60,000 nucleotides of DNA from Schmidtea polychroa (lineage: Eukaryota): contig CM097885.1 of NCBI GenBank assembly GCA_044892525.1, positions 20,586,001 through 20,646,000 on the forward strand. The letters run 5' to 3'. The notes beneath the pieces were generated by a model that did no database searches, was not told the origin of the DNA, and worked only from the letters and a program-made list of their open reading frames with translations. Shown piece by piece: positions 19,466-19,930 of the stretch. The number at the start of each line of letters is the position of its first letter. Within the stretch, counting starts at the first letter, position 1. Made by a program: the position numbers and the translations under genes.

Positions 19466-19930
19466 TTAATTAAGTGATAATAAAAAATCTAAAAATTCTT
19501 TTCCTTCAATTATTGATTTAATTTCAGATATGATATTATCAACTATATATTTGTAATCAATATTTTTTATTCCAAGAATTACTATCTTACCGCTAGCGAA
19601 TATATTTACACACATAGGGTTATATTTTATATATCTCAAAGCTGGAAATAATTCTGGTTCATAAAAGCATGGTATTAATTTAGCTAATTTATTTAAATTA
19701 CAAGAAAAACCTATATCGGAAGTTACGGTTATCGATTGTATTTCTAAATCATAAACATTATATTCACTAGCTTTGATTATTTCCTTACACCCCATAATTC
19801 TACATTTACCAGTTTTGAAATATATTATTGGATATTTATTACTTCTATTGATAAGTTGTTTTGGTTTCCCTATTGGAAATACCATTTTTGATACATCAGT
19901 TTTTGCCCTGTAATTTATATTTGAAAGCAT
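19466..19930 (-). CDS. Divergent TATA-box-binding protein (TBP)-like protein
   Basis: Two TBP repeats: LSNINY..IIYFKTGKCRIMGCK and EIQSITVTSDIGFSCNLNKLA..FYEPELFPALRY..VNIFASGKIVILG; intronless. Confidence 0.9.
   Translation of the reverse strand: MLSNINYRAKTDVSKMVFPIGKPKQLINRSNKYPIIYFKTGKCRIMGCKEIIKASEYNVYDLEIQSITVTSDIGFSCNLNKLAKLIPCFYEPELFPALRYIKYNPMCVNIFASGKIVILGIKNIDYKYIVDNIISEIKSIIEGKEFLDFLLSLN

Follow-up and report, generated by a model that had tools for sequence, protein, structure and literature searches.

We analysed a 60,000-nucleotide stretch of the Schmidtea polychroa genome (NCBI GenBank assembly GCA_044892525.1, contig CM097885.1, forward-strand positions 20,586,001 to 20,646,000), referred to below as the window, and focused on a Polinton-type mobile element within it and on one of its genes, TBPL, which encodes a 154-amino-acid protein resembling the TATA-binding protein (TBP). 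The element is 15.3 kb long and is flanked by a 6-bp target-site duplication, AAACTA, at 16976..16981 on the left and 32331..32336 on the right, the identical hexamer lying directly outside both termini. A 6-bp target duplication is expected of an integrase-made Polinton insertion. The left terminal inverted repeat (TIR; 16982..18416) is approximately 1.4 kb long and contains 18-bp tandem units with TCAAGGTCA, and the right TIR occupies 30873..32330. The two arms are 97-100% complementary over 17032-18416 and 30873-32274, the termini were extended to 16982 and 32330, and both ends of the element open with AGTAGTATG. TBPL lies inside the TIRs at 19466..19930 on the minus strand. Its open reading frame (ORF) begins with ATG and has no internal stop, and the gaps in end-to-end alignments with approximately 100 homologues do not suggest introns. 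A 104-bp AT-rich spacer (19931-20034) separates it from a divergently oriented gene block led by a packaging ATPase gene. This is the arrangement described by an earlier sequence-only reading of the window, which had noted an intact, intronless 154-amino-acid ORF within the TIRs, divergent from the virion genes across a spacer of roughly 100 bp.

In addition to the long TIRs and the 6-bp duplication, the element carries several genes characteristic of Polintons/Mavericks. These are an A32-like packaging ATPase (20035..20673, plus strand; Pfam Pox_A32, 2e-07, 31.2 bits, cut-off 22.8), a retroviral-type (rve) integrase (21237..22292, plus strand; Pfam rve, 2.7e-08, 34.4 bits, cut-off 32.6) and an adenain-like cysteine protease frame of 115 amino acids from stop to stop (24945..25292, plus strand; Pfam Peptidase_C5, 1.2e-06, 28.8 bits, cut-off 21.3). 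The place that pPolB takes in relatives is occupied by a 5.5 kb repeat-rich region devoid of ORFs (25300..30870), in which we found no trace of pPolB. The gene is absent from the window copy and from all four other complete copies of the family that we recovered. The element is a pPolB-less derivative of a Polinton/Maverick. The earlier description of the element as a Polinton is therefore upheld for its TIRs, target duplication, integrase, ATPase and protease, and has to be qualified for the polymerase, which this copy lacks.

TBPL is recognised as a TBP-family protein by sequence and by predicted structure. A Pfam search placed PF00352 on residues 62-125 as a single stretch (E 1.8e-15, 56.9 bits, cut-off 22.9), and a phmmer search against PDB sequences returned 35 TBP-type matches, the top one being the Methanocaldococcus TBP (1.2e-16). 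The C-terminal half scored higher against the C-terminal repeat of 2z8u (40.5 bits) than against its N-terminal repeat (22.3 bits). The AlphaFold model, built with a 33-member family alignment as input, had a pLDDT of 95.6 and a pTM of 0.84. Its C-terminal half has the full S1-H1-S2-S3-S4-S5-H2 arrangement of a TBP repeat (strand 60-72, helix 79-83, strands 88-90, 97-100, 107-111 and 115-121, helix 127-153), and its N-terminal half consists of four strands only (2-10, 25-28, 35-38 and 42-48), without helices and without a stirrup. All 44 Foldseek matches to this model with E <= 0.001 were TBPs (lowest E 3.7e-09), with TM values of 0.59-0.71 over approximately 170 columns and 22-30% identity to the TBP chains listed. 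An hhalign comparison of the TBPL family with 11 eukaryotic TBPs gave a probability of 98.4% over 127 columns, covering both halves. On these models TBPL is a TBP-fold protein, as the sequence-only reading had proposed.

The residues of TBP that kink DNA or contact the minor groove, TFIIB and TFIIA are textbook knowledge, which allowed us to ask what TBPL has retained. F38, F95 and F111 occupy three of the four TBP phenylalanine positions in the hhalign alignment, the fourth being taken by P23, which is invariant in the family. The asparagine position of the second repeat is S66, and that of the first repeat is probably N4, the strand being ambiguous in the alignment. The stirrup YEPELFP corresponds to residues 90-96, where TBPL reads YEPELFPAL and cellular TBP reads YEPELFPG, a change of G to A. 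Residues I5, N6, P23, F38, R44, G47, E91, P92, E93, F95, P105, C107, N109, F111, K115 and G120 are invariant in 33/33 family members, and the reduced N-terminal half is common to the whole family. In cellular TBP the C-terminal stirrup docks TFIIB, and the N-terminal stirrup and helices serve TFIIA, TAFs (TAF1), NC2, Mot1 and Brf1. TBPL is predicted to keep a nine-strand DNA-binding saddle and the C-terminal stirrup and to have lost the helices and stirrup of the N-terminal lobe. The residue-level observations of the sequence-only reading (a retained YEPELFP stirrup, three of four intercalating phenylalanines, a shortened N-terminal repeat lacking its stirrup, and serine in place of the second asparagine) were all reproduced by the alignments and the model. 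The PF00352 match, the saddle fold and the C-terminal stirrup motif are those of the TBP family, and TBPL lacks two complete repeats forming a ten-stranded saddle as well as the set of four phenylalanines and two asparagines. Because these two defining features, the repeats and the DNA-contact residues, are not found, we regard TBPL as a reduced TBP derivative and not as a canonical TBP.

To place TBPL among other TBPs we used a maximum-likelihood tree of 58 sequences, in which a branch with support of 100/98 separates 37 TBPL-type sequences from 21 two-repeat TBPs. The former comprise 33 sequences labelled as TBPL beforehand and four that had first been labelled two-repeat from their match pattern, and the latter contain three intronless TBP paralogues of the host as well as 11 eukaryotic TBPs. 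A quick tree with eight added sequences recovered the same split (SH-aLRT 98). Both trees are unrooted and were built from sets that leave out verified archaeal and giant-virus TBPs. By these phylogenies TBPL is a clade of its own, distinct from the TBPs of the host and of other eukaryotes, and is not nested within host TBP. Five of the loci that we collected (L120, L121, L126, L128 and L131) represent a single Polinton lineage with a complete two-repeat TBP beside a PC4-domain protein. Full two-repeat Polinton TBPs fall on the two-repeat side of the quick tree, and descent of TBPL from a full viral two-repeat TBP is possible. At L128:1302-2728 (plus strand) the two-repeat TBP (Pfam 8.5e-27, two stretches) directly follows a two-domain PC4 homologue (3.6e-21).

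Relatives of TBPL are numerous outside the S. polychroa genome. A word-indexed protein search returned 98 clusters of approximately 145-170 amino acids, all of them derived from assemblies in ENA, Logan, JGI or MGnify. Neither the 98 clusters nor the members inspected in 10 clusters include an NCBI or UniRef record, so the family is invisible to routine annotation. In a profile search of 1.84 billion representatives, 60 matched at E <= 1e-30; the number rose to 777 at E <= 1e-10 and to 3419 at E <= 1e-3, with ordinary TBPs among the weaker matches. Among 80 metagenome loci, TBPL lies beside at least one Polinton core gene in 39 and beside four or more in nine, and two loci (L060 and L065) carry the whole Polinton gene set, including pPolB, together with TBPL. 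Of the rest, 13 have only a homologue of p139, the gene that neighbours TBPL in the window, 27 have no recognised neighbour (for the most part short contigs of less than 3 kb, or loci whose full two-repeat TBPs are of another kind) and one has no match at threshold. The arrangement varies: in 21 loci TBPL precedes the ATPase gene and shares its strand, in eight it follows the protease, in two it is divergent from the ATPase gene, and in eight it is placed otherwise. The deepest TBPL-bearing elements have capsid proteins that are merely 25-28% identical to p407, the capsid candidate of the window element. IMG/VR yielded one weak TBP match (L001, 32%) and no relative of the capsid-like protein. 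By this distribution, TBPL is a conserved, syntenic core gene of a broad Polinton/Maverick clade. One of the metagenomic relatives also encodes an E2 ubiquitin-conjugating enzyme (L060:222-716, minus strand; Pfam UQ_con, 1.6e-12).

Within the S. polychroa genome (781 Mb), a protein search produced 4142 first-look TBPL candidates, of which 150 were scored. All 150 were intact and without a stop, with 98-100% identity over residues 1-154. The full ungapped coding sequence was present in 20/20 fetched copies, which differ at three codons in total; the within-family ratio of nonsynonymous to synonymous substitution rates (dN/dS) is accordingly uninformative. The window copy has Lys24 (codon 24, position 19861) where 19/20 other copies have Gln, and Tyr128 where 16/20 have Ser. 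In the four other complete copies of the element, the coding block is 98.3-99.4% identical to the window at the DNA level, the ORF-free region is 83-96% identical, and the TIRs are mostly 75-89% identical (one left arm reaches 99%). That the coding block is far better kept than the rest suggests that the differences arose in active lineages under selection and not after insertion. The element is young and present in very high copy number.

The same genome contains diverged relatives that possess pPolB, for which the search returned 8821 first-look candidates. Polintons whose pPolB is intact encode a TBPL 50% identical to that of the window and a p139 homologue. PF03175 was missed when full-length pPolB ORFs were run through hmmscan, but part of the L022 ORF, searched separately, matches it with 121 bits. 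Two further families have TBPLs 58% and 55% identical to the window, in the same divergent position beside the ATPase gene. For two of the three diverged families, a single contiguous stretch of recovered sequence also includes pPolB. The dN/dS of TBPL against the three families is 0.22, 0.14 and 0.14 (Nei-Gojobori; dS 1.4-2.8, near saturation). By these ratios TBPL is under long-term purifying selection. The value for p407 against t171 was discarded as a frame artefact, and the dS of p139 was saturated and gave no value. A host retrocopy had been considered as the origin of TBPL and was rejected on the separate clade, the intact copies, the synteny and dN/dS. The findings that the sequence-only reading had named as fatal to its proposal were a recent retrocopy of host TBP, absence from other copies and the lack of a TBP fold; what we found is a separate clade, syntenic orthologues in three same-genome families and 39/80 metagenome loci, and a predicted TBP fold. 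Some of the polymerases of the pPolB-bearing relatives have an Endonuclease VII-like segment ahead of the polymerase domain (L022:745-3945 and L065:9149-12358, both minus strand; Pfam 3.7e-04 and 7.7e-05, respectively, just under the cut-off). In a same-genome relative with pPolB, a Bcl-2 family protein is encoded between the p139 homologue and pPolB (L048:5285-5716, plus strand; Pfam 1.1e-07, 32.7 bits).

We then examined the sequences upstream of the element genes and their relatives, taking 150 nt before the start codon, admitting relatives with sufficient upstream sequence and a BLAST alignment starting no later than residue 25, and removing identical sequences. The commonest 7-mer upstream of the ATPase gene is ATAAACA, which occurs in 25/28 distinct regions (shuffled mean 1.2, maximum 5), with ATAAACG in two of the three regions that lack it. 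ATAAACA likewise ranks first among the 7-mers before the genes for the integrase (13/18), p355 (10/11) and p407 (12/13), is found in 12/12 regions upstream of p120 (tied with two other 7-mers), in 3/3 for p162 and in 5/11 for p139, and is rare or missing upstream of TBPL (1/43), the protease (0/7) and pPolB (0/2). The orientation is fixed, the reverse complement being present in 0/28 ATPase upstream regions. Across 26 occurrences, the motif is preceded by T 17 times and by C 7 times, and followed by A 17 times and by T 7 times, giving YATAAACA(A/T). Variants with one mismatch are ATAAATA (4), ATAAACG (2), ATGAACA (1) and AAAAACA (1), and GTAAACA does not occur. YATAAACA starts 31-38 nt before the ATPase ATG in 19/25 elements and is kept in the deepest TBPL clade (L098 and L102-L110).

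The TBPL gene itself is preceded by a different box. TATAWAW occurs in 23/42 TBPL upstream regions (shuffled mean 15.6, sd 2.8), with 33/40 matches at 31-60 nt from the ATG; when the window is included (43 regions), it occurs within 70 nt in 23, and at 35-47 nt in 20 of these 23. The canonical box of TBPL and the YATAAACA box of the ATPase share about the same promoter position. In the window, the canonical TATA box is TATATATA, which is palindromic and lies 36 nt upstream of the TBPL start (19959..19966). On the plus strand of the same spacer, a TATAAACA box (20001..20008) lies 33-34 nt upstream of the ATPase start. Further plus-strand boxes precede p162 (20687..21175; TATAAACA at 20647..20654, 39-40 nt upstream), the integrase (CATAAACA at 21171..21178, 65 nt upstream of the start, with a second box at 21092-21099, 144 nt upstream), p355 (22238..23305; ATAAACA at 22219..22225, 19 nt upstream), p120 (23298..23660; TATAAACA at 23197..23204, 100 nt upstream) and p407 (23657..24880; TATAAACA at 23615..23622, 41 nt upstream), all of these genes being on the plus strand. 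On the minus strand, an ATAAACA box (19410..19416) lies 59 nt upstream of the start of p139 (18938..19357), and p82 (18483..18731) has a sense-strand box 147 nt upstream. Between 19931 and 24880 there are seven plus-strand boxes, compared with 1.86 +/- 1.33 in shuffled sequence, and seven were reached in 1/1000 shuffles. The count of YATAAACA over the whole window is at chance level (15 vs 13.4). The signal is one of placement and of conservation across elements, not of frequency in the window. In L128, the one long locus whose TBP has both repeats, ATAAACA was found in 0/14 upstream regions and CGTAAGAA in 5/14. This hints, from a single locus, that box type covaries with TBP type. Alignment of the divergent spacer between subfamilies was informative for the closest pair only. 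The oriented YATAAACA box upstream of most genes of the element appears, on these comparisons, to be new here.

Taken together, we favour, with modest confidence, the reading that TBPL is a minimal viral TBP that would serve as a transcription initiation factor for the promoters of the element, acting through host TFIIB and RNA polymerase II (Pol II). The oriented YATAAACA box lends circumstantial support to a viral transcription factor of this kind. Somewhat more doubtful is a specific pairing of TBPL with the YATAAACA box. The element has no RNA polymerase gene. The mechanism we envisage is that host TBP would fire the canonical TATA box, so that TBPL is transcribed; TBPL might then occupy the YATAAACA(A/T) boxes before the ATPase, p162, integrase, p355, p120 and capsid genes, and often the SSB-like (single-stranded-DNA-binding) genes, and recruit host TFIIB and Pol II there. 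The element would thereby gain a promoter code of its own, free of the regulators of host TBP. The fold, the architecture, the conservation and synteny, the purifying selection and the orientation and placement of both kinds of box are established by the analysis, so that the interpretation of the sequence-only reading is supported in part; we infer the binding of TBPL to YATAAACA, its binding to TFIIB and the temporal cascade. Whether such a two-tier programme extends across the clade, with a TATA-driven 'one-and-a-half-repeat' TBP of approximately 150 amino acids that reads YATAAACA before the virion and integration genes, recruits TFIIB and Pol II and is blind to host TBP regulators, is a tentative proposal that we hold at slightly less than even chances. 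The N-terminal lobe of cellular TBP contacts the 3' half of the TATA box. YATAAACA departs from TATA in its 3' half (ACA), and the N-terminal lobe of TBPL appears remodelled; we regard this match as a structural rationale and not as evidence.

Several observations weigh against this reading. We found no TFIIB-like gene among the ORFs of the element or in L048, L060, L065 and L128, so a host partner must be assumed. Evolution is slower in the ATPase, capsid and integrase genes (dN/dS 0.05-0.12) than in TBPL, whose ratio against the closest subfamily (93% identity) is 0.66, a value based on only 15 changes. TATAAA and CATAAA are usable TATA boxes for cellular TBP, and host TBP could therefore use the boxes without TBPL. 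ATAAACA also conforms to RYAAAYA, the site of forkhead factors. A box approximately 35 nt before the ATG, if TATA-like, implies leaders of 5-10 nt, and the box could instead be an initiator. The upstream counts include close relatives (e.g. L058/L059/L060), which are not independent events, and the upstream stretches of the integrase, p355, p120 and p407 genes overlap the preceding coding sequence. Finally, the SSB-like neighbour of TBPL and the nearby pPolB of autonomous relatives would also fit a role in replication.

The best surviving alternative, which we nevertheless consider unlikely, is that TBPL is a general substitute for or competitor of host TBP, which would either raise expression from every TATA promoter of the element or silence host genes, and that the box is read by host TBP or a forkhead-type factor or acts as an initiator. 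TBPL retains the saddle and three of the four phenylalanine positions, and the loss of the surfaces for TFIIA, TAFs, NC2 and Mot1 would suit a decoy or an unregulated TBP, with host shut-off brought about by occupied TATA boxes or titrated TFIIB; the ordinary TATA variants and the forkhead site within the box, noted above, are compatible with it as well. Yet two distinct classes of box occupy the same promoter position within one element, and the ACA extension is conserved down to elements whose proteins are 25-40% identical. GTAAACA variants do not occur, and the motif is found on the other strand in 0/28 regions. In cellular TBP, the 3' half of the box is contacted by the N-terminal lobe, the part that is remodelled in TBPL, and it is in this half that the motif deviates from the canonical TATA.

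The case for a role in replication draws in part on p139, the neighbour of TBPL. Its AlphaFold model, from a family of 20 sequences, has a pLDDT of 89.3. Foldseek returned nothing at E <= 0.001 (the best row was the SSB of phage Enc34, E 0.06), and the ESM Atlas gave no usable match. VIA structural comparisons ranked p139 closest to CP312R of African swine fever virus (ASFV; Z 7.4, rmsd 4.6, 125 residues), DUF2815 (Z 7.0, rmsd 3.0, 102 residues), Enc34 SSB (Z 6.7, rmsd 3.2, 104 residues) and T7 gp2.5 (Z 6.5, rmsd 3.4, 106 residues); the top four chains are all viral or phage SSB-type proteins and are followed by many OB-fold single-stranded-DNA binders. The models suggest that p139 is an OB-fold single-stranded-DNA-binding protein, an assignment that is probable and not firm because all Z values are below 8. 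A complex prediction for TBPL with p139, run without controls or alignments, scored 0.00 and has no bearing either way.

With p139 in mind, TBPL could be a DNA-bending architectural protein of a replication module, acting on AT-rich DNA at or near the termini and aiding protein-primed initiation together with p139 and pPolB, in the manner of p6 of phage phi29 or of the host factors at the adenovirus origin. We judge this a little less probable still. The viral SSBs among the best fold matches of p139 agree with it, as does the persistence of the p139-TBPL pair, which is adjacent throughout changes of position (beside the ATPase gene in the window; beyond pPolB, at the other end of the element, in L046-L049), p139 being kept in 20 metagenome loci. 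The ATAAACA box is, in addition, missing from both TBPL and pPolB. Against these points, DNA bending does not need the invariant EPELF stirrup, which is the TFIIB contact in cellular TBP, and a family without pPolB keeps TBPL intact in all the scored copies, although its replication in trans is possible. TBPL follows the protease in the eight metagenome loci mentioned above, with no p139 match there, and TATA-like arrays were not seen in the TIRs, whose repeats are TCAAGGTCA units. Very improbable, lastly, is that TBPL is a captured host gene carried as a functionless passenger: Polintons and related viruses do acquire host genes, as the Bcl-2 homologue and the E2 enzyme of the relatives illustrate, whereas TBPL is present and intact in every copy and diverged family examined, has dN/dS of 0.14-0.22, forms a clade separate from the host TBP paralogues and shows the reduced N-terminal half family-wide.

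Compared with cellular and archaeal TBPs (PF00352; PDB 2z8u, 1ais, 1vol and 1c9b), TBPL is alike in fold, C-terminal repeat, stirrup and three phenylalanines. It differs in that the cellular core has approximately 180 amino acids and two full repeats, whereas TBPL has 154 and an N-terminal repeat of four strands without H1, H2 or stirrup, belongs to a mobile element and constitutes a separate clade. To our knowledge, TBPL is the smallest TBP-type factor. The nearest viral relatives by kind are the TBPs of giant viruses (Nucleocytoviricota) and the full Polinton TBPs, such as that of L128, a Polinton with integrase, capsid, protease, ATPase and pPolB matches which, unlike TBPL, keeps both repeats. 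The TBP mimics of herpesviruses are large, work in a six-protein complex and contact Pol II directly, whereas TBPL is small, stands alone and retains the TFIIB stirrup. None of these mimics was among the Foldseek or PDB sequence matches of TBPL, a direct comparison not having been made. The likeness would be a conceptual one, namely a virus-encoded TBP-type factor and a virus-specific TATA-like box before virion genes that are transcribed by host Pol II. ORF24 of Kaposi's sarcoma-associated herpesvirus, UL87 of human cytomegalovirus and BcRF1 of Epstein-Barr virus read the non-canonical TATT box of viral late promoters (PMC12529657, PMC4893493).

A TBP gene in elements of this kind is not wholly without precedent, although, as the sequence-only reading noted, TBP is not among the standard Polinton core genes. 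The legend of Fig. 5 in Starrett et al. 2021 on Adintoviruses (PMC8502044) labels a gene 'TBP' in a midsize linear dsDNA (MELD) virus with an adintovirus-like PolB. The label is a legend entry, belonging to section 3.4 on non-animal datasets, and the parts of the text around it contain no analysis of architecture, distribution, synteny or promoters. Polinton proteins were surveyed structurally in 2024 (PMC11161782), in a paper where the words TBP, TATA, transcription and promoter do not occur. Our search of the literature on polintons, Mavericks or adintoviruses together with TBP, TFIIB or the box motif found no treatment of such a gene or box, supplements lying outside the search. A virus-encoded TBP-family factor is thus an already known kind of protein, and what is new is the one-and-a-half-repeat architecture, the core-gene status in a Polinton clade and the associated promoter box.

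Polintons/Mavericks are among the most widespread eukaryotic DNA elements, and their own gene control is essentially undescribed. Should the proposed role of TBPL be correct, Polintons would for the first time have a described promoter code, YATAAACA, and a dedicated initiation factor, TBPL, which would also be a natural minimal TBP that reveals which parts of the saddle are dispensable. Selection has preserved a saddle devoid of N-terminal lobe helices and stirrup in lineages with capsid proteins that share only 25-30% identity. TBPL and the box form a concrete model that is directly testable with one small protein and short oligonucleotides, and the element is young and extremely abundant, which should make suitable material easy to get.

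The remaining genes of the element are less well defined. The product of p407 is a candidate double-jelly-roll major capsid protein. In the ESM Atlas, the closest cluster that bears a name is 'Double jelly roll-like domain' (score 0.98), which we treat as no more than a lead, and Pfam gave nothing significant and PDB sequence searches, including a profile search, gave nothing; we consider the assignment probable. The neighbouring p355 is a conserved virion-block protein without a family match, for which gene position would suggest a minor capsid or penton protein. The product of p120 is a conserved small protein, that of p162 is basic with a hydrophobic C-terminus, and the integrase has a weak C-terminal Chromo match (Pfam 4.6e-04, 20.5 bits, under the cut-off of 25.1). 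The protease frame has no ATG at its head and, as noted, no ATAAACA box upstream in its relatives; the protease may be expressed by splicing or off the capsid-gene transcript. At the other end of the coding block, p82 is a small, acidic, Cys-rich ORF that is 100% conserved in 4/4 other copies and matched no family in a Pfam scan. We also looked at sequencing coverage of the element. None of the runs that contain the element is recorded as RNA. Contigs from two runs that may be RNA span the coding block (30/30 and 26/30 bins), with lower depth beyond 25316; these data were set aside and not used, since their RNA nature is a guess and a dip at the same place appears in another run, unrecorded in kind and probably DNA.

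An Rfam search of 16500-32800 found no family reaching its gathering score. The ORF-free region consists of simple repeats and copies of the subterminal TIR repeats. Within the TIRs (17498-18225 and 31064-31809), the 18-bp unit with TCAAGGTCA forms arrays of approximately 10 copies. TCAAGGTCA corresponds to the extended half-site of monomeric nuclear receptors of the FTZ-F1/SF-1 or ERR type, and the arrays could be host-factor binding sites or enhancers. Elsewhere in the window, fragments of pPolB from a different, degraded Polinton lie on both strands at 5700-10200, with 30-69% identity to the L022 polymerase; the piece at 6246-6725 is Endonuclease VII-like. The interval 49941-59468 holds a Ty3/gypsy-type retroelement (gag, zinc knuckle, protease, RT/RNase H), where one long ORF contains a MATH/TRAF domain and a second ORF a Monjiviricetes-type viral fusion glycoprotein domain (Pfam 1.8e-61).

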